Counted from the stretch's first letter, positions 8,205 to 44,902 are shown. The stretch is 64,000 nt of DNA from Verrucomicrobiia bacterium (GCA_035532155.1 DATKRN010000022.1:8078-72077), one strand, 5' to 3'. The notes: generated by a model not told the origin, from the letters alone. Numbers and translations are program-made.

Positions 8205-9052
8205 AAGGGGCCGGGATCCCGTCCTGGGATTCCAGCCGGCTCCGGGAGCGCGATCGCGGGCGCACCCGCTGCCGCAGGTGCCGGTGGCGAGGACATCGCC
8301 GCAGACGGCCCGGCTGCCCCGGCTGGCCTGGGCCAGCATCTCCCCGCAGCTCCAGGGGAGGTCGGCCAGCCAAGCCCTCGACGGCGGCCGGCCGGAGACC
8401 GTGGCGGTCATCTCCAGCTCGCAGCCCCCGCCCCGGCGGCGGTCATGGAGCTCGTCGGGCGTCACCCGGTAGGGGCCGAGGCTGGTGGCGAAGTCGTTGG
8501 CCGTGACCGCTCCCAGCCCGACCGGTCGCTCTGCCCGCTGCAGGTCGCGCGCGCTCCAGTCGTTGCAGATGCAGAGGCCGGCCAGGTGCCGCTCGGCCCG
8601 GTCGGGGCTGAGGTCGTGCCCCTCCCGCCCGACCACCGCGGCCATCTCCAGCTCGAAGTCGAGCTCGCGGCAGCCGGGCGGCGCCGTCACCGGGGTCCCG
8701 TCGCCCACCACCACGTGGGGAGTGCTGACGTAGAAGCCGGGTCCCGGTACCACGCGGGTTCGACCACCAGGCCGCGCGCCCCCCACCTGGTGAGCACCTG
8801 CGCCTCGAAGGCGTAGCAGTCACGCAGCGCCGGGGGGCGCGGGACCGGCGCCAGCCGCACCACCTCGGCCAGCGCAACCACCTCGCCGGGGTCGCGACCG
8901 GCCCGCTCGCCGGCCGCCGCCAGCCGCTCTTCGTGATCACCCAGCAGGTCAACCAGGCCAGGGCTCGCCTCCCATCCCTGCAGGCGGTCATTCAGCACCA
9001 GCCGGACCCTCTCGTCGGCCGAATCGAGAGGACGGGAGGTGGCCCAGCGCAC
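8205..9052 (-). pseudogene. Fumarylacetoacetate-hydrolase (FAH) family protein, split by a 1-nt frameshift in a G/C run
   Basis: The N-terminal fragment is ORF 8687..9052 (...ALRDCYAFEAQVLTRWGARGLVVEPAWYR then out of frame). The remainder lies in ORF 7746..8786 (...VVPGPGFYVSTPHVVVGDG...LDFELEMAAVVGREG...NDWSARDLQ...GDVLATGT). The junction is at ccgggtcccgg (~8743-8753). The exact C-terminal end is unclear. Confidence 0.45.
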
Positions 9053-9189
9053 CGCGACTCAGCTGCTCGTCAGCCGGGGCGGGCCGCCCCGGGGACTTCA
9101 CCGGCGGCCAGAGCCCAGTCCAGACCGGCCCATCTCACCGGTGTAGGAGGGGGCGCAGCGCCGCCCCCCGCGTCCCCTACGATGCCCGG

Positions 9190-9627
9190 ATGAGTTCCGA
9201 CCCACCCCCCAGCGCCGGTCTCCCCGAGTTCGCTCCCGGACCGCTCTCGCTGGGGTTCGACCAGCTGCTCGGGTCCGAGATCATCGAGGCCGGTCCGGGA
9301 CGCGTCCACCTGCGGCTGGTGCTGACGCCAGCCCACCACCAGCCGTTCGGGATCGTGCACGGGGGCGTGCACGCCGCCCTCGCCGAGAGCGCGGCCTCGA
9401 TCGCGGCCAGCTTGAATGCGGGGCGGATCGCGGTCGGCATCAGCAACCACACGAGCTTTTTGCGCGCCGTTCGCGACGGGGTCCTGGACGCCGTCGCCAC
9501 CCCGGTCCACACCGGGCGGCGGGTCCAGCTGTGGGAGGTCGCCATCCACCGTGGCGAGGAGCTCGTCGCCAGTAGCAGGGTGCAGCTGTTCGTGCTGGGG
9601 GACCCGGGCCAGCCCGGCAGCGCCTGA
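9190..9627 (+). CDS. PaaI/4HBT family hotdog-fold thioesterase
   Basis: ORF with ...PFGIVHGGVHAALAESAASIAAS..., characteristic of PaaI-type thioesterases. Confidence 0.75.
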   Translation: MSSDPPPSAGLPEFAPGPLSLGFDQLLGSEIIEAGPGRVHLRLVLTPAHHQPFGIVHGGVHAALAESAASIAASLNAGRIAVGISNHTSFLRAVRDGVLDAVATPVHTGRRVQLWEVAIHRGEELVASSRVQLFVLGDPGQPGSA

Positions 9628-21922: not shown

Positions 21923-22897
21923 TCAGGGAGAGGGCGCGGGCGCCCCGCCCCGGAGCACCGGGACCCGGACGGCGGGCGGACGACCGGCCAGGACCCCGAG
22001 CGTGATGGCCACGCCGCCAACCAGCTGGAGCGGGCGGATCGGCTCACCGATCAGCGCCGCCGCGAACACGATCCCGAGGAAGGGCTGGGTGTAGCCATAG
22101 ACGGAGGTCCGGGTGGGGCCGAGGCGCTCCAGTCCTGTGTAGTAGAGCCATCCGCTCAGGGTGACCGCTGCCAGCGCGCTGAACGCCAGCAGGCCGAGGA
22201 CACCTGAATCGAACCGGGCGGGCGCGACCACCGCCTCCACGATCCCGAGCGGGGCCAGGCCGATGCTGCCCACCAAGCTCACCATCGCCGCCAGCGCGAG
22301 CGGCGGATGGCGGGAGAGGAGGGGCGAGATGAGCAGGAGGTAGGCGGTCCAGCTGACGGGCAGTCCCAACCCCACCAGGTCGCCCGCGACCGAGGAGCGG
22401 CCGTGGGCTCCGGTGAGGACCACCAGCCCGAGGCCGGCGAGGCCCACCCCGAGCCCGGCCCAGACCCGAGTTGAGAGCCGCTGCCGGCGCCGCCAGGCGA
22501 GCCAGCCGGCGACCCCGAGCGGCGCGGTGCCGGCGAGCAGGGAGACGTTGTCCGCGCTGGTGAGGCGCAGGGCCCAGGTGAACGAGACCTGGTTGATGAC
22601 CACCCCGCAGCCGGCCGCCAGCGTCAGCTGGGCCAGCTCCCGGCCCCGCGGCCATCGCAGCGGGCCCTCGCGCCAGCGCGCGAGGGCCGCCAGCAGGCCG
22701 GCCCCCAGCACCCAGCGCAGCGCCGAGAACGTGAGCGGGCCGACGGGGCCGACGGCCAGCTTGGTGACGACGACGTTGGCGCTCCAGATGACGTAGGTGA
22801 CCAGTACCAGCCCGTCGCCCCAGCCGGCTCCCCCCGGCAGCGCGCGGCCCGGGAGCGGCAGCCGGCCCGCGCCTGCCTGCTGCCTCACCACGCCCAC
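21923..22897 (-). CDS. EamA/DMT superfamily transporter (10 TM)
   Basis: ORF hydropathy shows two EamA repeats. Confidence 0.7.
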   Translation of the reverse strand: MGVVRQQAGAGRLPLPGRALPGGAGWGDGLVLVTYVIWSANVVVTKLAVGPVGPLTFSALRWVLGAGLLAALARWREGPLRWPRGRELAQLTLAAGCGVVINQVSFTWALRLTSADNVSLLAGTAPLGVAGWLAWRRRQRLSTRVWAGLGVGLAGLGLVVLTGAHGRSSVAGDLVGLGLPVSWTAYLLLISPLLSRHPPLALAAMVSLVGSIGLAPLGIVEAVVAPARFDSGVLGLLAFSALAAVTLSGWLYYTGLERLGPTRTSVYGYTQPFLGIVFAAALIGEPIRPLQLVGGVAITLGVLAGRPPAVRVPVLRGGAPAPSP

Positions 22898-22958
22898 GGT
22901 AGCGGAGCCGCCCGGGAGACTGGGTGGGGGGCGCGACGGAGGCTGTTACGATCGGAGC

Positions 22959-25148
22959 ATGCTGCGCCTGCATGACACGCTGGCGCGCGGCGTACGCCCG
23001 GTGGAGCCGGCCGAGCCCGGCCGGCTTGGCCTCTACAGCTGTGGACCGACCGTGTATCGCTCCGCGCACATCGGCAACCTGCGCACCTACCTGCTCGCGG
23101 ACTGGATCAAGCGCACCGCCCGCGGCGCCGGCCTCGAGGTCCGTCACGTCAAGAACATCACCGATGTCGGCCACATGCGCCAGGAGCTGGCCGAGCGCGG
23201 CGGCGACAAGGTGATCGCGGCGGCGCTGGCCGCGGGCCGCACCCCGCAGGCGATCGCGCGGGCCTACGAGGACGAGTTCCACGCCGACGAGGCGGCCCTT
23301 CTGATCGGGCCCGCGGACGTCTTCCCCCGCGCCACCGAGCATGTGCCCGCGATGCTGGACCTGGTGGCGCGGCTGCTGGCCCGCGGGCTCGCCTACCAGG
23401 CTCAGGGCTCCGTCTACTTCGACACCAGCGCCTGGCCCGACTACGGTCGCCTCTCCGGCAACCTGGCCCCCGCGCAGCTGGCCGCGGCCGCCGGCGAGGC
23501 CGACCCGCTAAAGCGCCACCCCGGCGACTTCTCGCTCTGGCGGGCCGCCGAGCCCGGGCGCCGGCTGATGGTGTGGGAGAGTCCCTACGGGCCCGGGTTC
23601 CCGGGCTGGCACATCGAGTGCTCGGCGATGGCGATGGCGCACCTGGGCGAGACGTTCGACCTCCACACCGGCGGCGTCGACAACATCTTCCCCCACCACG
23701 AGGACGAGCGCGCCCAGAGCGAGGGCGCCACCGGGCGACCGTTCGCGCGCGCCTGGGTCCACGGCCAGCACCTACTCGCCGACGGCCTCAAGATGGCCAA
23801 GTCGACGGGCAACGTGTACACCCTCGCCGAGCTGCGCCGGCGCGGCTACGATCCGCTCGCCTTCCGATATCTGTGCGCCACCGTCCACTACCGGACCCCC
23901 CTCCACTTCACCCTGGCCACCCTGGCGGGCGCACAACGGGCGCTGCAGCGGCTGCGCGCCGTGGTCGCCGCGGGGCGGCGCGACGGCGCCGCCGACCGCG
24001 ATCCCGAGCCCCAGGTGGGGGCCCGGCTCCGCGCCGAGGTGCAGCGCCTGCTGGAGGACGACCTCGGGGTGCCGGCGGCGCTCGCCACCTGCTGGCGGCT
24101 GGTGCGCCACGACCCCGCCGGGCCCCCCGCCAAGTCGCTCGCCCTGCTCGGGGTCGAGCCGCTCCTCGGTCTCGGGCTGGACCAACCGGCGTCGCCCCCG
24201 GCACCGGACTCCGGCTGGCGCCGCGATCGGCTGGCCCGGGAGCGGGCCCGGGCGTCGGGCGGCTGGGAAGCGGCCGACCGCGCTCGTGTGCGGCTGGCTC
24301 GGGGTGGAGTCGTGCCCGAGGATGGGCCCACCGGGACCCGGTACCGCGCCGCCACCGCACTCGACCGCCGCCGCGGCCTGATCTCCAGCCCCGCGGAGGT
24401 CGAGGATGGTCGCGAACGACCCGATCGCGTCGAGGTCACGGTCAGCCTGGTCTGCAACGGCCCCGCCCCCGATGCGGTTCGCTGCGTGGAGAGCCTGCTG
24501 GCGCACCGCGGGCCCAGGGGCGTCGAGATCGTGGCGCTCGACAACGGCGCCGACCCCGACACCGGCGCCGCGCTGGACCGACTGGCGGCGGATCACCCCG
24601 CGGTGCTGGCTCTCCACGCCGACCACCGCCTGGGCGAGGGAGCGGCCCGCAACTGCACCCTGCGCGCGGCCACCGGGCGGGTGGTTCTGCTCGCCGACAC
24701 CGGGCTGGAGGCGGTCGGCGACTGCTTCACCCCGCTGCTGGCGGCGCTGGCCGACCCCGAGGTGGGAGCGGTCGGACGCTTCGGGGTGCGCTCCCGGGAC
24801 ATGCGCGAGTTCACCCTCTCGGATGCGGTCACGGTCGACGCCGTCGAGGGGTACTGCCTCGGGTTCGCCCGGCATCGGCTCCTCGAGATCGGCCTGCTCG
24901 ACGAGCGCTACCGGTTTTACCGACTGCTCGACTTCGATTGGTCGATGCGGCTGCGCGCCCACGGGCTGGAGAATCGGAGGATCCCCGACCTGCCGGTGCG
25001 AATGCACCTTCACCGGGGCTGGGAGGAGACCGAGCCGGAGGAGCGCGAGCGGCTGAGCCGAGCTAACTTTCGCCGCTTCTACGACCGCTGGCACCATCGT
25101 CAGGATCTGCTTATCAGCGCAACGGACCCGCCGCCGCGGTCGGGGTGA
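22959..25148 (+). CDS. cysS: Fusion protein: N-terminal cysteinyl-tRNA synthetase-like enzyme (catalytic and anticodon-binding-like regions), C-terminal GT2-family glycosyltransferase domain
   Basis: Single uninterrupted ORF (22797..25148). ATG at 22959 gives MLRLHDTLARG... Class I motifs are HIGN (HIGH-like) and KMAKS (KMSKS). Zn/Cys-binding residues are conserved (SCGPTVY, WHIECSAM, FPHHEDE). A CysRS-like C-terminus reads ...DDLGVPAALA...GW..DRLARERARASGGWEAADRARVRLARGGVVPEDGPTGTRY. It then continues in frame into a GT-A/GT2 domain (...VSLVCNGPAPD...VEIVALDNGADPDTG...RNCTLRAATGRVVLLADTG...DFDWSMRL...). Confidence 0.7.
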   Translation: MLRLHDTLARGVRPVEPAEPGRLGLYSCGPTVYRSAHIGNLRTYLLADWIKRTARGAGLEVRHVKNITDVGHMRQELAERGGDKVIAAALAAGRTPQAIARAYEDEFHADEAALLIGPADVFPRATEHVPAMLDLVARLLARGLAYQAQGSVYFDTSAWPDYGRLSGNLAPAQLAAAAGEADPLKRHPGDFSLWRAAEPGRRLMVWESPYGPGFPGWHIECSAMAMAHLGETFDLHTGGVDNIFPHHEDERAQSEGATGRPFARAWVHGQHLLADGLKMAKSTGNVYTLAELRRRGYDPLAFRYLCATVHYRTPLHFTLATLAGAQRALQRLRAVVAAGRRDGAADRDPEPQVGARLRAEVQRLLEDDLGVPAALATCWRLVRHDPAGPPAKSLALLGVEPLLGLGLDQPASPPAPDSGWRRDRLARERARASGGWEAADRARVRLARGGVVPEDGPTGTRYRAATALDRRRGLISSPAEVEDGRERPDRVEVTVSLVCNGPAPDAVRCVESLLAHRGPRGVEIVALDNGADPDTGAALDRLAADHPAVLALHADHRLGEGAARNCTLRAATGRVVLLADTGLEAVGDCFTPLLAALADPEVGAVGRFGVRSRDMREFTLSDAVTVDAVEGYCLGFARHRLLEIGLLDERYRFYRLLDFDWSMRLRAHGLENRRIPDLPVRMHLHRGWEETEPEERERLSRANFRRFYDRWHHRQDLLISATDPPPRSG

Positions 25149-30979: not shown

Positions 30980-32347
30980 CAGGGTGCTGAAAAACCAGCC
31001 ATCATCACCGGCCCCCGAGCGCTCTCGGATGTGAGAGTCTTGGTCCAGCGAGTTGGTCTGAGGAGGACAGGTGATGCGGGGACCGGTGATCTACCAGACG
31101 GCGATGCTGTCCGCCGTCACCACCGAGGATCTGGTACCCACGGACCACCCCATTCGCCGGATCAAGCCGGTGGTGGACGCCATCCTGGTCGACCTCGAGC
31201 CCACCTTCCGGCAGATGTACTCGGTCATCGGGCGGCCGAGCATCCCGCCCGAGCATCTGCTCAAGAGCACGGTGCTGATGGCGATGTACTCGGTGCGGAG
31301 CGAGCGCCAGTTCTGTGAGCGGCTCCAGTACGACATGCTGTTCCGCTGGTTTCTCGACCTGGGCATCGAAGACCGTGTCTTCGTCCCCACCACCTTCACC
31401 AAGAACCGCGAGCGGCTGCTCACCCACGAGGGGGCGGACACGTTCTTCCAGGCCTCGGTGGAGCAGGCGCGGCTGCGCGGCTACGTCTCGGACGAGCATT
31501 TCACCGCCGACGGCAGCCTGCTCGAGGCATGGGCCTCGGTCAAGAGCTTCACGCCCCGCACCGAGAGCGGCCACGGGTCGGCCGCCAGCGGTGGCGGCGC
31601 TGGGCGCGATCCCGAGGTGGACTTCCACGGGGAGAAGCGGAGCAACGCGACCCATCAGTCCACCACCGATCCCGAGGCCTTGCTGATGCGCAAGAGCAAG
31701 GCCCACGCGGCCAAGCTCTCCTACGCCGATCACGTCCTGATGGAGAACCGCTCCGGCCTCATCGTCGCGACGGAACTCACCCCGGCGACCGGGTACGCCG
31801 AGCGCGACACCGCGATCGCGCTGCTCACGCGGCTGCCCGGCGCGGGCCGGCAGCGCCGCACCCTCGGCGTCGACAAGGGGTATGACACCCGTGACTTCGT
31901 GAAGGGGTGCCGCGCGCTCAAGGTCACCCCTCACGTGGCCCAGAATGTGAGCGGGCGCCGCAGCGCCATCGACGACCGGACCACCCGCCATACGGGATAC
32001 GCGGTCAGCCAACGGATCCGCAAGCGGGTGGAGGAGATCTTCGGCTGGAAGAAGACCGTGGGCGGCTGCCGCAAGCTTCGCTTCGTGGGCCGGAAGCGCA
32101 ATCGCATCTGGACCCTGTTCAGCGGAGCGACGTTCAACCTCACCCGGATCGCCACCCTCGATCGTGACGCCGCCCTCCGGGCGGCATGAGGGCGCCGGGA
32201 GCGGCCGCGCGGAGCGAGCCGGGGGCTCCGGCGGGCGGTCCAGCCGCCACCCCGGAGGCCGCCACGGGGCGACGAGCGCCTCGGGCCGCTGACCGCGACC
32301 AGCTTGGCGGCCCAGACATCTCGTGAGGTCGCTATTTCAGCACCCTG
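30980..32347. mobile_element. IS5-family insertion sequence (~1.37 kb), intact
   Basis: Perfect 13-bp terminal inverted repeats CAGGGTGCTGAAA at 30980-30992 and (reverse complement) 32335-32347. One transposase ORF. Flanked by 4-bp direct repeats CTAA at 30976-30979 and 32348-32351. Confidence 0.7.
31071..32189 (+). CDS. IS5-family (DDE_Tnp_1) transposase
   Basis: ORF with an RBS GGAGGA upstream, a DDE-type core (...GVDKGYDTRDF...), and the C-terminal ...EEIFGWKKTVGGCRKLRFVGRKRN.... Confidence 0.85.
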   Translation: MMRGPVIYQTAMLSAVTTEDLVPTDHPIRRIKPVVDAILVDLEPTFRQMYSVIGRPSIPPEHLLKSTVLMAMYSVRSERQFCERLQYDMLFRWFLDLGIEDRVFVPTTFTKNRERLLTHEGADTFFQASVEQARLRGYVSDEHFTADGSLLEAWASVKSFTPRTESGHGSAASGGGAGRDPEVDFHGEKRSNATHQSTTDPEALLMRKSKAHAAKLSYADHVLMENRSGLIVATELTPATGYAERDTAIALLTRLPGAGRQRRTLGVDKGYDTRDFVKGCRALKVTPHVAQNVSGRRSAIDDRTTRHTGYAVSQRIRKRVEEIFGWKKTVGGCRKLRFVGRKRNRIWTLFSGATFNLTRIATLDRDAALRAA

Positions 32348-39841: not shown

Positions 39842-40276
39842 CTAGTCGAGGTCGGGCGCGTCCCCGGGCCAGCCCCCAGGTGGCGGCGAGGCGGGACCGG
39901 GCACACGCGCGAGGTCGGCCGGATCAAGCAGCAGCAGCAGCTGGTCGCCGACTCCAGCCCGGCGCAGTCGGTCCCACCCCGCCGCCTCGTCGGCGTCGAT
40001 CGTCAGCACCACGCTGCCGTGCTCCACTCGGCTGCTCCACCCAAGGGCTTCCAGCCGACGGACCACGTCGACGGCGAGGGTCAGGCGGTGCTGGAGCAGC
40101 TGCTTGACCGCCGCCAGCCGCACCGAGACGGGCATCCGGTCAGCGGTGGGGCGGTCGGCGAAGGCGAAGGAATGCATCTCGTAGTAGCGCACCAGCCACA
40201 CCGGCAGCGGCTCACGGCTGACCTCCTCCACGTCCTCGTCGAGGGTGCGCAGCGGGCACAGCCGGAGCTGCATCAC
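39842..40276 (-). CDS. Hypothetical soluble protein, last gene of the Rieske/cyt b/CydA-like operon
   Basis: ORF 39842..40276. Its GTG start overlaps the TGA of the upstream CydA-like gene (GTGA). Confidence 0.4.
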   Translation of the reverse strand: MMQLRLCPLRTLDEDVEEVSREPLPVWLVRYYEMHSFAFADRPTADRMPVSVRLAAVKQLLQHRLTLAVDVVRRLEALGWSSRVEHGSVVLTIDADEAAGWDRLRRAGVGDQLLLLLDPADLARVPGPASPPPGGWPGDAPDLD

Positions 40277-41645
40277 TCGCCACCGAGGATGAGGTTGGCT
40301 CCGGTGGCCGCCCCCCCCTGGGCGGGTCCGGTGGTGGCGGGGGGCACGAAGTTCTGCTGCTGGTTGATGAGCATGTGGTTGGTGATGAGGAAGGGGCCCC
40401 GGGCATCCTCACGGATGTAGCCCATGAGGGCCATGATCAGGCTCACCGCCACCCCCATGGTGATGAGCGCCAGCGCCTGGCTGCGGCGTGCCTCCCCCCA
40501 GCGCAGGTGGCCCCGGCTCACCTCGCGCAGGAAGACCGTCACCGCGGTGATGCTGACGAAGGTGAACGCCACCAGGGCGGTGAGCTTCCAGGGGATCATC
40601 GCCCCGAAGGGGATGAGCAGTCCGCCGTTCCAGATCGGCACGTTGGCGTTGGCGGCGAAGACCTGCTCGTAGCTCCAGGCCAGTGACGAGGGTGTGGCCC
40701 CCAGCAGCCAGGCCCCCATCGAGAGCACGGCGCAGAGCGCCAGGGTGGGAGAGCGGATCCCGCTGCTGCGCACGCGCCGCCAGAAGAAGAAGATCCCGGC
40801 GGTGAGGATCAGTCCCAGCAGGAACATCTGGAACAGGAAGGCGACGCTGAGACCGCCCAGCATCATGTCGTACCAGCTGGCGTAGGCGTGGAGCTGGATC
40901 TCCTTGGCGTACTCCCAGCCGACCAGCGGCTGGAGCGCGGTGAACGCGATCGCGATGACCGCTCCGATGGCCCCCATCCAATCCGCATAGCTGCGCTGCT
41001 GCGGGGTCCGCGCGCGCAGCACCCGCCACCCTGCCACGATCGCGATCAAGGCTCCGGTGAAGGCCACGTTGCCGATCAGGCGATGCACCTCCAGGGGGAT
41101 CAGGGTGGGGTTGAGCAGGATCAGGGGGAGGTTGAAGGCGGGCCGCGGCGTGAGCATGTAGGAGGCCACGAAGTTGATCGCCAGCATCTGCACGAAGAGG
41201 TCGACCGCGAGCACCAGCCCGAGGCCGATCCGCAGGGGACGGACGCGGCCCAGCCGGTCCCACCCGACGTAGAGGGTGTAGAGCGCCATGATCTCGAGAG
41301 CGAACGCGCCCGCCTCGATCACCAGCGGCCAGAACATGATCCGCAGCAGCTTCACCCAGAAGTGGCTCCACAGACCGGTGAACAGGATCATCATCGCGAA
41401 GATCGCCAGCGCCGCCCCGATCGAGAAGACCACCGCCATCGTCTTGACCATCCCTCGGGCGAAGCGGGTCTGACGCTCGTCCTTGCGGACCATGCCGAGG
41501 AAATCGAAGAGGGTCATCACGAGCGCGCCCCCCTGCTGGAAGGCGGCGAACTGGATGTGCGCCAGCATCAGCAGGCCAACCAGCGCGGTGGCCACCCCGG
41601 TGGAGATGCCCACCGGGACGAGATGCGGGGCAAGGGCGAGGGTCA
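40273..41645 (-). CDS. Cytochrome bd ubiquinol oxidase subunit I-like (CydA-like) polytopic membrane protein
   Basis: This is the C-terminal ~457 aa of the chimeric ORF 40273..43071. ...FWPLVIEAGAFALEIMALYTLYVGWDRLGRV... matches the CydA ...PLAIEGLMAFFLE...FFFGWDRLGKV block. ...ALMGYIREDARGPFLI... resembles the periplasmic ...AEYGRQPWAI motif. A GTG start ~16 nt downstream of the cyt b stop follows GGAGG. No cydB is adjacent. Confidence 0.6.
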
Positions 41646-41663
41646 GGGGCACGGAGCCTCCGA

Positions 41664-42878
41664 TCAGAGGTTGAAGAGACGGTTGACGGCGAGCAGCGCC
41701 TCGAAGATGAGGAACAGGAGCGTGAACAGGGCGGGCACCATCAGCTGGGGCCGCTTCCAGGGCTCCCGATCCGGAGAGCGGTCGAGGAAGGGGACCAGGA
41801 TCAGCAGCGTGCTGGCCAGCCCGGGGATGACGAAGACCCCGACCGGGATCATCCACGCCTGCGGGAACTGCACCAACAGCTGGTCCAGCGGCAGGAAGAA
41901 CCACTCCGGGGTGGGCACGTAGGTGAGCGAGGCGGGGTTGGCGGGCGCCTCCAGCGGCGAGCCGACCACCACCGCCATCACGAAGATGACCAGCACCAGC
42001 AAAAAGGAGATGATCGCGTCCTTGCCCACCTGGGAGGGGAAGAACTCGTCGAGGTCGTCGGGGACCGCATAGCCGGGGTCGGAGGGGACAGCCGGGTAGG
42101 GGGGCTCCGCCCGCAGCACGCGCTCCGCTCGCTCCCGCTCCGACTCGCCGGGGTCGTTGCGGTAGTTCACCCACGAGCCATGCTCGCCGTGGCGGCGAAG
42201 CAGGTAGAGGTGGACCACGATCAGCGGAACCAAGAGCGCGGGGAGCAGCCAGATGTGGATGGCAAAGGTGCGGGTCAGGGTCACCGGACCGACCTGATTG
42301 CCCCCCCGCCAGATCTCCTGCAGCCAGTGCCCCAGCCCGGGGACGTAACTCAGCACATGGGTGGTGACCACCGTGGTCCAATAGGCGGCCTGGTCCCAGG
42401 GCAGCATCGCCCCCGTGATCCCGAGAGCGAGCACCAGCAGGAAGAGCATGACTCCGGTGATCCAGTTGAGCTCGCGCGGCTTCTTGTACGAGCCGCTGAC
42501 GAAGGTGCGCACCATGTGCAGGCCGATCACCAGCAACAGAACGTAGGCGCCCCACAGGTGCATCCCCCGCACGATGGCGCCGAACTCGTCGTGGTGGGCC
42601 AGGTAGTTGAGGCTCTCCCAGGCCTCGGTGGTGGAGGGCACATAGCTCCACAGCAAGAACATGCCGGTCACGATCTGGAGCGCGATGATGATGAGGGTGG
42701 CGCTGCCCAGGGTGTAGGCCCAGGCGCCCCGTCGCGGCACCGCCTCGTAGAGGCCCTTGTAGGCGAGGTCGGTGATCCCCATCCGCTCGTCCACCCACCG
42801 ATAGGCGATCGCCAGCGGCCGGGATATCGGATGGGTCAGCCGCCCCGCCAGCTTGGATCGGGTCGACTCGCGGGCCAT
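41664..42878 (-). CDS. qcrB: Cytochrome b (b6-like N-terminal four-helix core plus a subunit-IV-like C-terminus), quinol:acceptor reductase subunit
   Basis: ORF with ...YTLGSATLIIIALQIVTGMFLLWSYVP...MHLWGAYVLLLVIGLHMVRTF...PEWFFLP.... Confidence 0.85.
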   Translation of the reverse strand: MARESTRSKLAGRLTHPISRPLAIAYRWVDERMGITDLAYKGLYEAVPRRGAWAYTLGSATLIIIALQIVTGMFLLWSYVPSTTEAWESLNYLAHHDEFGAIVRGMHLWGAYVLLLVIGLHMVRTFVSGSYKKPRELNWITGVMLFLLVLALGITGAMLPWDQAAYWTTVVTTHVLSYVPGLGHWLQEIWRGGNQVGPVTLTRTFAIHIWLLPALLVPLIVVHLYLLRRHGEHGSWVNYRNDPGESERERAERVLRAEPPYPAVPSDPGYAVPDDLDEFFPSQVGKDAIISFLLVLVIFVMAVVVGSPLEAPANPASLTYVPTPEWFFLPLDQLLVQFPQAWMIPVGVFVIPGLASTLLILVPFLDRSPDREPWKRPQLMVPALFTLLFLIFEALLAVNRLFNL

Positions 42879-42881
42879 CCT

Positions 42882-43373
42882 CTAGGCCTCGGTCAGCCGG
42901 TCGCGCACGTACAGGGTCTCCCCCGCCAGCTTGTGCTGGTAGCGGAAGAGGGGCTTGGGTGGTGGGCCGCCGACGTTGGTGCCGGTGATCGAGTAGAAGC
43001 CGCCGTGGCAGGGGCAGAGGAACTGCTGCAGGTCGATGTCCCAGTGCACATCGCACTGCATGTGGGTGCACACGTTGGAGAGCGAGAGGACCTGGAGCTG
43101 ATTGCCGACGTTGAGCTTGACGACGTACACGATCCTGGCCACCGGGGGCACCTTCCAGGCCTGGGTGGTGGGCATCTGCACCACGTAGGCGGTGGGCAGC
43201 CCTACCGGCACCTGGCTGATGTCACCCACCCGCACCCAGGGGTGGGAGCGCCGGGTGAAGATCGGCTGCAGCACCTCGCCGACGATGGGCGCCGCGATCA
43301 GCAGGGTGATGCCCGCGCCGGCGAGGTTGGTCGCCAGCACCATGAAGCGGCGGCGCGAGATCCGGGTGCCCAC
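42882..43373 (-). CDS. qcrA: Rieske [2Fe-2S] iron-sulfur protein with a Tat signal
   Basis: N-terminal twin-arginine RRRFM. Rieske boxes CTHMQC and CPCHGG. Confidence 0.85.
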   Translation of the reverse strand: MGTRISRRRFMVLATNLAGAGITLLIAAPIVGEVLQPIFTRRSHPWVRVGDISQVPVGLPTAYVVQMPTTQAWKVPPVARIVYVVKLNVGNQLQVLSLSNVCTHMQCDVHWDIDLQQFLCPCHGGFYSITGTNVGGPPPKPLFRYQHKLAGETLYVRDRLTEA

Positions 43374-43374
43374 C

Positions 43375-43608
43375 TCAGGCGCCTCCCTGCCCGATCGGGA
43401 CCACCACCAGCGCGATCAGCATCCCCAGCACGAACACCAAGCTGAGCACGGTCACCGACCCCGCCGCGGTCGCGGCGAGGTGGTCGCCGGCGCGCCAGAG
43501 GACCCGGAGCCGGCGCAGCACCAGCCAGGCTCCGACCAGCAGCACCACGAACAGCGACGTGATCACGATCCCGAGGAACCAGGCCGTCTCGAAGTCCTGG
43601 TAGTTCAA
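43375..43608 (-). CDS. Small two-TM membrane protein (77 aa) within the respiratory operon
   Basis: ORF 43375..43608. Sits 1 nt upstream of the Rieske start. Confidence 0.4.
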   Translation of the reverse strand: MNYQDFETAWFLGIVITSLFVVLLVGAWLVLRRLRVLWRAGDHLAATAAGSVTVLSLVFVLGMLIALVVVPIGQGGA

Positions 43609-43633
43609 CGCGATGCCCCCACGCCGCAGCGGA

Positions 43634-44902
43634 TCACGGCAGCACGCCGCGCGGGGGGTCGAAGTTCTGGGTCGCGGTGTGCAGGCTCATGAGGCAGCTG
43701 CTCTGGCCGCTGGGGGCGTCGATGGCGCAGGGCAGCTTGACGTTCTCTTTGATCACCCCCATGTACAGGCTGAGCGCGAGCGCCGCCACCGCCACCACCG
43801 GGATCAGGCGGCCGGCCGGCCCCGGCAGCCCCAGGGTGGCGGCCCCGCGCCGGTGCTCGGCAATGAAGCGCGCCAGATGCACCGCGGTGGCGGCGAAGGC
43901 CACCAGCAGCAGCGAATAGCGGAGCGCCACCAGCCCGCTCGGGATCACCACCGCGGGCATGGCGGCGCCCGCCATGCCGAGCAGGGCCACCACCGTGAGC
44001 CCGGCCCCCGCCCGGCTGCCGCGGGCGGCGGGGCTGTGCTGCCAGAAGACCAGGTTCGCCCCCACCACCACCACTGCCAGCAGGCCCACCTGCCCCACCA
44101 GCATCACCCCCGAGCCGCCGGTCGTGAGGTTGGCGAAGGCCGGTCCCGAGCTCTGCTGGAGGGTGGCGGCGAGCAGGAAGCCGGTCACCGGCTGCGCCAC
44201 GAGGAAGGTCGCGCCGATTGCGAAGTTGACCCGGGCCGCCCAGCGCTGGAAGGCCACCTCGGCGGGGTCGGTGGCACGCCCCAGCCGCCAGACCGCGATG
44301 GCGGCGAGCAGGAGGGCCGGCCACGAGAGGTTGGCGGCGGCGTAGTGGAGCAGCAGCCAGGGGTAGCTGGGGCTGAAGGCGGCCGAGCTGGCGTGAACCG
44401 ATCCCGGGGTGAGAGCGAAGCTGTCCAGCTCCACGATGGTGAACAAGAAGATGTACTGCACGGCCGCGAAGGCGAAGCCGATGGCGAGGTGGAGCCGGGG
44501 GGAGATCTGGTCCCAGCGGTAGACGTACAGCAGCATCAGCGGGATGCCGATAAAGAAGCTGCCGAAGGCGATCGTCAGCGGCAGCAGCAGCAGGTTCAGC
44601 AACGTCCCGATCAAGTTCCCGTAGATCCCGGTGAGGAGCACCACCGCGAAGACCGCCCAGGTGGCGCCGAAGCTGTAGAGGTACGCGGTCGCATGCGCCA
44701 GGCTGCGGGCGTAGCGGAGGTGGCGGGGGTCACCCCCGCGCCGACGCCCGGCCAGTTCCATGAAGGGCGCCAGCGCGCTGGCGCCGAGGATGAAGCCAAC
44801 CAGGGCGATGTGGATCAGAAAGGTGGCGCCGATGGCGGCGGCGGCCCCGACCGACCCCAGCGGCAGATGGGGGACCGGGGTCGGGAATGCGGAGAGGGGC
44901 AC
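43634..44902 (-). CDS. Second CydA-like (cytochrome bd subunit I-like) polytopic membrane protein
   Basis: ORF 43634..45040. ...LYVYRWDQISPRLHL... is the GWDRLG-equivalent. ...LYMGVIKENVKLPCAI... is the GRQPW-equivalent. The N-terminal helix contains His (FLIHIALVGF). The start is uncertain: GTG at 44902 with a GAGG RBS is preferred over 45040, which would crowd the divergent holA start. Confidence 0.5.
   Translation of the reverse strand: MPLSAFPTPVPHLPLGSVGAAAAIGATFLIHIALVGFILGASALAPFMELAGRRRGGDPRHLRYARSLAHATAYLYSFGATWAVFAVVLLTGIYGNLIGTLLNLLLLPLTIAFGSFFIGIPLMLLYVYRWDQISPRLHLAIGFAFAAVQYIFLFTIVELDSFALTPGSVHASSAAFSPSYPWLLLHYAAANLSWPALLLAAIAVWRLGRATDPAEVAFQRWAARVNFAIGATFLVAQPVTGFLLAATLQQSSGPAFANLTTGGSGVMLVGQVGLLAVVVVGANLVFWQHSPAARGSRAGAGLTVVALLGMAGAAMPAVVIPSGLVALRYSLLLVAFAATAVHLARFIAEHRRGAATLGLPGPAGRLIPVVAVAALALSLYMGVIKENVKLPCAIDAPSGQSSCLMSLHTATQNFDPPRGVLP

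Follow-up and report, generated by a model that had tools for sequence, protein, structure and literature searches.

How are electrons from quinol passed on where a Rieske protein and a cytochrome b are encoded together with two CydA-like proteins, and with neither CydB nor a c-type cytochrome? This question is raised by a six-gene operon on the minus strand of DATKRN010000022.1:8078-72077, a 64,000-nucleotide stretch (hereafter the window) of a metagenome-assembled genome (MAG) labelled Verrucomicrobiia bacterium (GCA_035532155.1), in which the two CydA-like genes enclose those for the Rieske protein and the cytochrome b (Table 1). A first-pass annotation of the window had proposed that the operon specifies neither a standard bc1 or b6f complex nor a standard bd oxidase, and that a Rieske/cytochrome b core is hard-wired here to bd-like subunits; profile hidden Markov models (HMMs), conservation of the gene order and a fused relative support this proposal. 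We consider it probable that the operon encodes a quinol:O2 oxidoreductase supercomplex of the OR-N5 branch of the bd superfamily, free of c-type cytochromes.

Six closely spaced genes without cydB or a cytochrome c gene

The operon consists of six open reading frames (ORFs) in the order that the first-pass annotation had given, and none of the gaps exceeds 25 nucleotides: with starts supported by homologues, they are 25, 1, 3, 11 and -1 nucleotides. GGAGG-like, purine-rich motifs resembling Shine-Dalgarno sequences precede most of the starts. The fifth gene most likely starts at 41652, giving a product of 459 residues, and not at 41679, in agreement with the identical database protein HUY96866.1. 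The annotated absence of CydB and of CXXCH motifs from the six products was confirmed and could be widened, as no CXXCH motif was found in any of the 48 genes called in the window by third-position GC, and neither a cydB nor a cytochrome c gene was found within 10 kilobases on either side of the operon.

The two large membrane proteins are CydA paralogues

Both large membrane proteins matched the Pfam family Cyt_bd_oxida_I (PF01654) above threshold, in the N-terminal half of the profile only: the 422-residue product of the first gene with an E value of 1.2e-11 over profile positions 6-239 of 418, and the 459-residue product of the fifth gene with an E value of 9.6e-17 over positions 6-237. We call them N5b-like and N5a-like, respectively, after the class described below. 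A single-sequence phmmer search of the PDB with the N5a-like protein gave no match, and family profiles were needed. The profile of the N5a-like family matched CydA of G. thermodenitrificans (5doq_A, 1.5e-13), and a profile of 11 N5b-like homologues matched CydA of M. smegmatis bd-II (9r2g_A, 1.2e-11) as well as 5doq_A (1.6e-9). An AlphaFold model of the N5a-like protein (predicted local distance difference test score 78, predicted template modelling score 0.81) showed ten long helices, and the top 10 PDB matches that Foldseek returned for this model were all CydA chains at probability 1.00. An unrelated transporter family, the outcome that the first-pass annotation had named as fatal to its reading, is ruled out, as Pfam, profile and fold matches were to CydA only. 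The two proteins align with each other over their full length at 26% identity (E value 1e-19) and are paralogues.

Residues were mapped through profile alignments and hhalign against E. coli CydA, and their conservation was scored in 82 N5a-like and 65 N5b-like sequences; numbers for the N5a-like protein refer to the 459-residue version (add 9 for the 468-residue one). The N5a-like protein has equivalents of five key residues of E. coli CydA, namely H32 for H19 (kept in 80 of the 82 sequences), E113 for E99 (81), E120 for E107 (54), H190 for H186 (82) and E415 for E445 (81). The spacing of 7 between E113 and E120 is one residue tighter than in E. coli, as it is in G. thermodenitrificans. In the N5b-like protein, H31 (H19 equivalent; 65/65), H138 (H126; 65/65) and H186 (H186; 64/65) are conserved histidines, while the positions of E99 and E107 are occupied by A112 (Ala in 62 of 65) and G119 (Gly in 31, Thr in 18). 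E386 stands at the position of E445, where the family has Glu in 48 sequences, Thr in 16 and Ala in one. The single N5b-like protein that departs from the H186-equivalent histidine has Met in its place (LLLMYAGG; L005:3759-5021). We presume that the N5b-like protein is a pseudo-symmetric partner of the N5a-like protein and takes the place of CydB.

Two CydA hallmark blocks had been assigned to both proteins by the first-pass annotation, and each assignment stood in part. The GWDRLG loop is exact in the downstream paralogue, whereas the upstream one reads YRWDQISP there; a Glu aligns with E445 in both proteins, but the segments IREDARGPF and IKENVKLP resemble GRQPW only weakly. The Q-loop is absent from the N5a-like protein, in which the flanking helix pair is joined by a short conserved segment and by no long hydrophilic loop. 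Since the paralogues have no Q-loop, they would need an external electron donor.

The place of the Q-loop is filled by residues 246-270 or so, YAKEIQLHAYASWYDMM, a segment that is nearly invariant among the 82 Dormibacterota-type proteins (Glu in 81/82, His in 77/82, Met-Met in 81/82); the fused relatives P0097 and P0257, described below, do not share this conservation. The YAKEIQLHAYASWYDMM segment could supply the missing sixth ligand of a b558-like haem, or it could be a docking site.

The Rieske/cytochrome b module looks competent

The Rieske protein matched PF00355 (E value 3.2e-7) and, below their cut-offs, the NCBIfam models of the b6f iron-sulfur subunit (1e-14); its best PDB relatives are b6f and Rieske-I proteins. 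It carries a twin-arginine translocation (Tat) motif, RRRF, with the arginine pair at residues 7-8. This pair and C102, H104, C107, C120, C122 and H123 are invariant in 72 homologues; C102, H104, C120 and H123 are the cluster ligands and the other two cysteines form the disulphide pair. Box II reads CPCHGG, with Gly and not Ser at its last position in 72 of 72 sequences. Gly for Ser at this position accompanies lower-potential, menaquinol-type clusters, and from the CPCHGG box we infer such a cluster here.

The cytochrome b matched PF00033 (5e-45), PF13631 (1.4e-40) and PF00032 (3.4e-4), and NCBIfam b6 models below their equivalog cut-offs; the closest PDB entry is cytochrome b6 (1vf5_A, 7.5e-45). 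All 72 relatives keep the four haem-ligand histidines, H107, H121, H208 and H223. In the Qo motif, PEWF, Trp and Phe are kept in 72 of 72 sequences, Pro in 70 and Glu in 67. The position of b6 Cys35, which holds haem ci, is Thr in the window and Thr, Ser or Ala among relatives. Judged by these motifs, the Rieske/cytochrome b module looks competent.

The module resembles those of b6f and Bacillota-type bc complexes in its Tat-exported Rieske protein, its b6-like cytochrome b with a subunit-IV-like part, its four haem histidines and its PEWY-type Qo motif. It differs from them in that it has no cytochrome f, c1 or fused cytochrome c, no haem ci cysteine and no recognisable small subunits of the PetG, PetL, PetM or PetN type. 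In bc1 and b6f terms, the Rieske ligands, the four-His cytochrome b and the Qo motif are all in place, and the c-type subunit and the haem ci Cys are not.

The operon falls into the published OR-N5 class

The bd superfamily has been split into qOR, OR-C and OR-N groups, of which OR-N lacks a quinol site, and an operon type in which OR-N5a and OR-N5b accompany petA, petB and petD was defined at the same time, with quinol inferred as the donor (Murali, Gennis & Hemp, 2021, bioRxiv 10.1101/2021.01.16.426971). The first-pass annotation had called such bd-like proteins uncharacterised, which stands; the operon type itself is not new. The reference pairs are from Rubrobacter xylanophilus (WP_143528031/WP_143528035) and a 'Chloroflexi bacterium' (TMC48000/TMC47996), and Table S6 gives for OR-N5a H183, no Met, E406, H24, E104 and E111, and for OR-N5b H202, no Met, S405 (S/E/T), H34, A115 and T122 (Murali et al., 2021); the H126 equivalent in the OR-N5a reference sequence is H132. 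The N5a-like protein of the window shows the OR-N5a signature, as H32, E113, E120, H190 and E415 lie at a near-constant offset of 7-9 from the Table S6 numbers. Like the reference, it has neither a Q-loop nor a Met393 equivalent; it has about ten transmembrane helices by its AlphaFold model and by the topology of fused relatives; and its operon contains an N5b paralogue with petA, petB and petD counterparts. The N5b-like protein likewise agrees with Table S6, with both histidines kept, Ala or Gly at the two Glu positions, and an E445 position within the S/E/T variation.

The two CydA paralogues of the window have three genes between them, an arrangement that the reference accessions, which are four apart, would fit, and their identity of 26% compares with 28-32% reported for the reference pairs. 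At the H126 position both paralogues of the window depart from the reference: N5a has Arg where the reference has His, and N5b has His where the reference has Asn. We treat the Arg in N5a as variation and not as exclusion from OR-N5a, because proton-channel residues vary within OR-N (Murali et al., 2021). A further difference is that the window cytochrome b is encoded by one fused petB-petD gene, and the text of the preprint consulted here makes no mention of a 143/144-residue protein, a 77-residue subunit or a linked cupredoxin. On these sequence grounds the window operon is a new Dormibacterota member of the catalogued OR-N5 plus Rieske/cytochrome b type. OR-N5 CydAA' genes have also been found downstream of alternative complex III (ACIII) in Nitrospirales (PMC12342949, 2025); there, too, a bd-like subfamily lies beside a quinol-oxidising module, but the partner is ACIII and not a Rieske/cytochrome b module.

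Related loci share the interleaved gene order

When one genome of each species was scanned, 80 related loci came to light, nearly all from Dormibacterota MAGs, including 'Chloroflexi bacterium CF_xx' soil MAGs. The order CydA-like, (small protein), Rieske, cytochrome b, CydA-like is kept in these loci wherever the contig reaches; shared by 80 loci, it recurs beyond chance. The survey of gene neighbourhoods that the first-pass annotation had called for thus turned out in its favour. The closest relatives of the 459-residue protein are named Dormibacterota or Dormibacteria, and word-indexed searches with it returned Dormibacterota-type relatives only. The family is small, given that a profile search gave only 982 matches at E values up to 1e-3, and 119 up to 1e-30, in 1.84 billion representative proteins. 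Two 'Chloroflexi bacterium' proteins of the TM accession series, TMG36897.1 and TMF58576.1, belong to this family and may come from the same MAG set as one of the reference OR-N5 pairs, as accession series and organism label match. Dormibacterota were scored as OR-N positive, and also as positive in the first two columns of the table, which we take to be the quinol-oxidising qOR1 and qOR2 (Murali et al., 2021).

Some carriers of the operon bear other names. The window contig and L001, L024, L029, L031, L042 and L044 are labelled variously Verrucomicrobiae, Micrarchaeia, Micrarchaeaceae, Acidiferrales, Nanopelagicaceae, Binatus and Eisenbacteria, and all but the Verrucomicrobiae record have SMAG isolate names. 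These look like taxonomic mislabels, since the proteins of the oddly labelled MAGs are 39-100% identical to those of the window.

A recurrent carrier slot, and fused relatives that point to coupling of the two modules

A gene for a cupredoxin lipoprotein, which the first-pass annotation had omitted, lies 664 nucleotides past the operon end on the other strand, convergent with the operon. Its product matched PF00127 with an E value of 3.1e-8 (34.4 bits against a cut-off of 21.2), and the LAGC lipobox and copper ligands (the His in DLHNV and the C-x2-H-x2-M in YYCTLHPGM) are present in 21 of 21 sequences of the window's clade, its own included. From these motifs the 162-residue protein appears to be a type-1 copper protein and is a candidate periplasmic electron carrier. 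In three loci of other lineages a cupredoxin gene follows the N5a-like gene directly on the same strand (L053, about 8263-8652; L059, 5328-5873; L073, 2409-2861), and in another a monohaem cytochrome c lipoprotein does so, its gene overlapping the N5a stop (L084:9428-9934). Elsewhere the slot after N5a holds no carrier gene, and a gene like that for the 144-residue protein, or the operon end, follows directly. The annotated lack of a c-type cytochrome therefore holds for the window, but related operons carry cytochrome c or cupredoxin directly after the second CydA-like gene. L059 and L073 also have a convergent gene for a CRP/FNR-type regulator with a transglutaminase-like domain.

The repeated presence of a one-electron periplasmic carrier, cupredoxin or cytochrome c, with the module would suit a different reading, in which the operon encodes a complex III that passes electrons from quinol to cupredoxin (or to cytochrome c): its CydA-like proteins would act only as haem-b relays in place of c1 or f, and the electrons would leave via cupredoxin to a distant terminal oxidase. 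The operon indeed has no c1 or f subunit, and the two c-type haem domains that surround the CydA-like part of the fused relative P0257 could serve output as well as input. On the other hand, N5a retains equivalents of H19 and E445 as well as the two glutamates of the proton channel, which are O2-site residues in bd oxidases and none of which a relay needs, and many related operons have no carrier gene nearby. We therefore regard a complex III of this kind as unlikely.

Two relatives of the N5a-like protein are fused to carrier domains. In P0097 an N5a-like protein ends in a cytochrome c domain at its C terminus, and P0257, found on three independent contigs, is a single polypeptide of 1096 residues that comprises cytochrome b (4-337), cytochrome c (CSSCH at 371), a linker rich in Pro and Ala, an N5a-like part (563-994) and another cytochrome c (CSGCH at 1030). 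The gene next upstream of that of P0257 encodes a Rieske protein, and genes for desulfoferrodoxin and a universal stress protein (Usp) are also upstream; no N5b-like gene was found near it. As a Rosetta-stone fusion, P0257 suggests that the Rieske/cytochrome b module and the bd-like subunit act as one physical unit, and at the level of sequence it argues for physical coupling of the two modules. In P0097 and P0257, periplasmic cytochrome c domains adjoin the N5a-like part on both sides, and this part is expected to have an even number of helices and both termini in the periplasm.

This coupling bears on a further possibility, namely that two independent enzymes, a small Rieske/cytochrome b complex and a CydAA'-type oxidase with a donor of its own, merely share a transcript. 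Mixed functions are common in operons. The OR-N3a/b and OR-N4a/b pairs occur alone in genomes without partner subunits (Murali et al., 2021). However, the interleaving of the Rieske and cytochrome b genes with the CydA paralogues persists in the 80 loci as far as their contigs extend, the missing Q-loop calls for a donor from outside, and cytochrome b and an N5a-like part are joined in one polypeptide in P0257. Because of the interleaving and the fusion we rank the two-enzyme alternative as the least likely of the three considered here, and as very improbable.

A probable route from quinol to O2

In the quinol:O2 supercomplex that we favour, quinol, probably menaquinol, would be oxidised at the Qo site of cytochrome b, where one electron would enter the bL/bH chain of a Q cycle and the other would pass to the Rieske cluster on the outer side of the membrane. 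From there, with no c1 or f involved, it would reach a b558-like haem in the N5a/N5b pair directly or via the lipoprotein cupredoxin; the cupredoxin would thus replace the c-type haem found in relatives. O2 would be reduced at a bd-type di-haem site in N5a, with cytoplasmic protons supplied via E113 and E120. More tentatively, as a possibility that we would not yet put above its alternatives, the six products and the cupredoxin may together form one supercomplex, free of c-type cytochromes, in which a Q-cycling Rieske/cytochrome b module feeds a bd-type O2 site via a copper centre; this would merge the roles of complex III and of a bd oxidase in one energy-conserving enzyme, a third quinol-oxidase architecture next to the haem-copper and the canonical bd enzymes that may be widespread in Dormibacterota.

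The comparison with canonical bd oxidases (CydAB(X), as in E. coli bd-I and G. thermodenitrificans) shows what such a site would share with them. The CydA fold, the first four helices with the H19/E99/E107 site and the equivalents of H186 and E445 are common to both, and here, too, two related membrane subunits are expected to pair as a heterodimer. In contrast, the window has no CydB, no Q-loop quinol site and no Met393 equivalent and therefore none of the CydB, quinol-site and His/Met-ligated haem b558 features that mark the canonical qOR/CydAB enzymes; the N5a-like protein has ten helices against nine; and N5a and N5b would take their electrons from an external module.

These same departures (Arg at the H126 position, no Met393 equivalent, no Q-loop) leave room for the idea that the bd-like pair reduces NO, peroxide or another oxidant, or is a low-yield protective O2 scavenger, and the desulfoferrodoxin and universal stress protein genes beside distant relatives would suit a setting in which O2 is a stress. 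The Glu pair and the set of haem ligands nevertheless resemble those of O2-reducing bd enzymes in Table S6 (Murali et al., 2021), Dormibacterota do not resemble strict anaerobes, as they score positive for two quinol-oxidising bd subfamilies in the same source, and the window shows no linkage of nitrogen-oxide or peroxide genes to the operon. A non-O2 or protective role accordingly strikes us as quite improbable, though less so than two unconnected enzymes.

Several observations weigh against the quinol:O2 supercomplex. Of the 82 N5a-like sequences, that of the window included, 51 have Arg and 31 have His at the H126 position, and no residue aligns with Met393, the haem b558 ligand. To our knowledge OR-N5 enzymes are described from genomes only, and the binding of haem, the synthesis of haem d and the reduction of O2 are predictions for the class. 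The placement in OR-N5 was made by residue signatures, helix number and operon context rather than by a tree, and a gene neighbourhood that is shared by related genomes of a single clade is weak evidence when taken alone. Co-transcription of the six genes is presumed from their spacing; a scan for promoters and terminators gave nothing above shuffle expectation, with three 'terminators' falling inside genes, and is uninformative on the operon boundaries. Finally, a cupredoxin gene was found within the fetched flank in only 23 of the 80 loci, and the L059 copy has lost all copper ligands (YYSSYNSGE against YxCxxHxxM), so that the carrier is not obligatory in cis.

The proposed wiring has parallels outside the bd superfamily. 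In the actinobacterial bcc-aa3 supercomplex and in Sulfolobus SoxM, a Rieske/cytochrome b module is obligatorily wired to a terminal oxidase through a bound carrier, which is di-haem cc in the former and the copper protein sulfocyanin in the latter. The concept of a Rieske/cytochrome b module tied to an oxidase is the same in the window, but the oxidase part there belongs to the bd superfamily and not to the haem-copper one. Nothing specific on the respiratory chains of Dormibacterota, or on an association of cupredoxins with bd-like proteins, emerged from our literature searches.

Small subunits and other features of the window

The 77-residue protein has hydrophobic segments at residues 12-30 and 52-70 and gave no Pfam or NCBIfam match. 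A profile search found a homologue in the same slot in 51 of the 80 loci, to which L083 and L084 are to be added. The 143/144-residue protein gave no Pfam or NCBIfam match either and has no transmembrane segment. Its first profile had been contaminated by out-of-frame stop-to-stop ORFs that overlap N5a in this high-GC DNA, and the matches that it produced in 77 loci were discarded as spurious. With a profile rebuilt from trimmed matches, and counting only matches downstream of N5a, a homologue directly follows N5a in 49 of the 77 loci with enough flank, and also in L083. L030 has a tandem duplicate of this type of gene after N5a (8371-8742 and 8895-9290).

The gene for a 163-residue lipoprotein starts one nucleotide after the cupredoxin stop, and the two are neighbours in about 20 loci of the window's clade; from this arrangement the lipoprotein is probably co-transcribed with the cupredoxin. 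A weak precomputed match to Mtb12_C exists for the same gene, called there as 159 residues, and our own Pfam scan gave sub-threshold matches only.

Table 1. Coordinates of the operon genes, the adjoining lipoprotein genes and the fused relative (positions in the window unless a locus is named).
Feature	Position	Strand	Remarks
CydA paralogue, OR-N5b-like, 422 residues	43634..44902	-	gene 1 of operon; PF01654 match
Small membrane protein, 77 residues, two transmembrane segments	43375..43608	-	conserved small subunit; family unknown
Rieske [2Fe-2S] protein, Tat-exported, b6f-like, 163 residues	42882..43373	-	PF00355, RR motif
Cytochrome b, b6-like + subunit-IV-like fusion, ~7 transmembrane helices, 404 residues	41664..42878	-	PF00033, PF13631, PF00032
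CydA paralogue, OR-N5a-like, 459 residues, candidate O2-reducing subunit	40273..41652	-	PF01654 match, AlphaFold/Foldseek
Soluble protein, function unknown, 143/144 residues	39842..40273/40276	-	start overlaps N5a stop codon
Type-1 copper (cupredoxin) lipoprotein, 162 residues	38689..39177	+	PF00127; convergent with operon
Lipoprotein, function unknown, 163 residues	39179..39670	+	adjoins cupredoxin gene
P0257	L085:3994-7284; L086:3745-7035		cytochrome b/cytochrome c/N5a-like/cytochrome c fusion

According to the called genes and the precomputed Pfam matches of the identical contig, the operon is flanked upstream by the divergent genes holA, rpsT, ispE and murT/gatD, and downstream, convergently, by the lipoprotein and Copper-bind protein genes and then nth. 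In L038, L064 and L083 (e.g., L083:13065-15193), genes for a stand-alone receiver-domain protein and an ABC transporter ATPase come after the operon.

The GC content of the window is about 74%. That of the operon is lower (0.68-0.69 against about 0.75 in the flanks), which had suggested horizontal transfer. We do not take it as such, because each of the five membrane-protein genes measured has a third-position GC of at least 0.94 and a low GC at second positions (0.43-0.54), as a high share of hydrophobic codons would give. Elsewhere in the window, a transposase gene (DUF772 and DDE_Tnp_1; 31071-32189) is probably part of an insertion sequence, and GC at 30-34 kilobases is 0.68-0.69 against about 0.75 around it. 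In an ORF of 783 residues (22797-25148), the catalytic domain of a cysteinyl-tRNA synthetase occurs together with a glycosyltransferase domain of family 2; this ORF may be a real fusion or an artefact of start and stop calling.

Significance

The operon type has been catalogued since 2021, and what is added here, modestly, is the recurrent slot for a cupredoxin or cytochrome c partner and the natural fusions of cytochrome b, cytochrome c and CydA-like parts. Together, slot and fusions provide a testable wiring diagram, to the testing of which culturable carriers of the operon such as Rubrobacter are suited. Bd oxidases have no copper or haem c at the active site and often have a high affinity, and we know of no Q-cycle/bd hybrid that has been characterised. 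Such an enzyme, if the proposed route is true, would join a Q cycle, which is proton-motive, to an oxidase of the bd type. For the Dormibacterota, which are abundant in soil and uncultured, a working quinol:O2 supercomplex of this kind would bear on how they respire.

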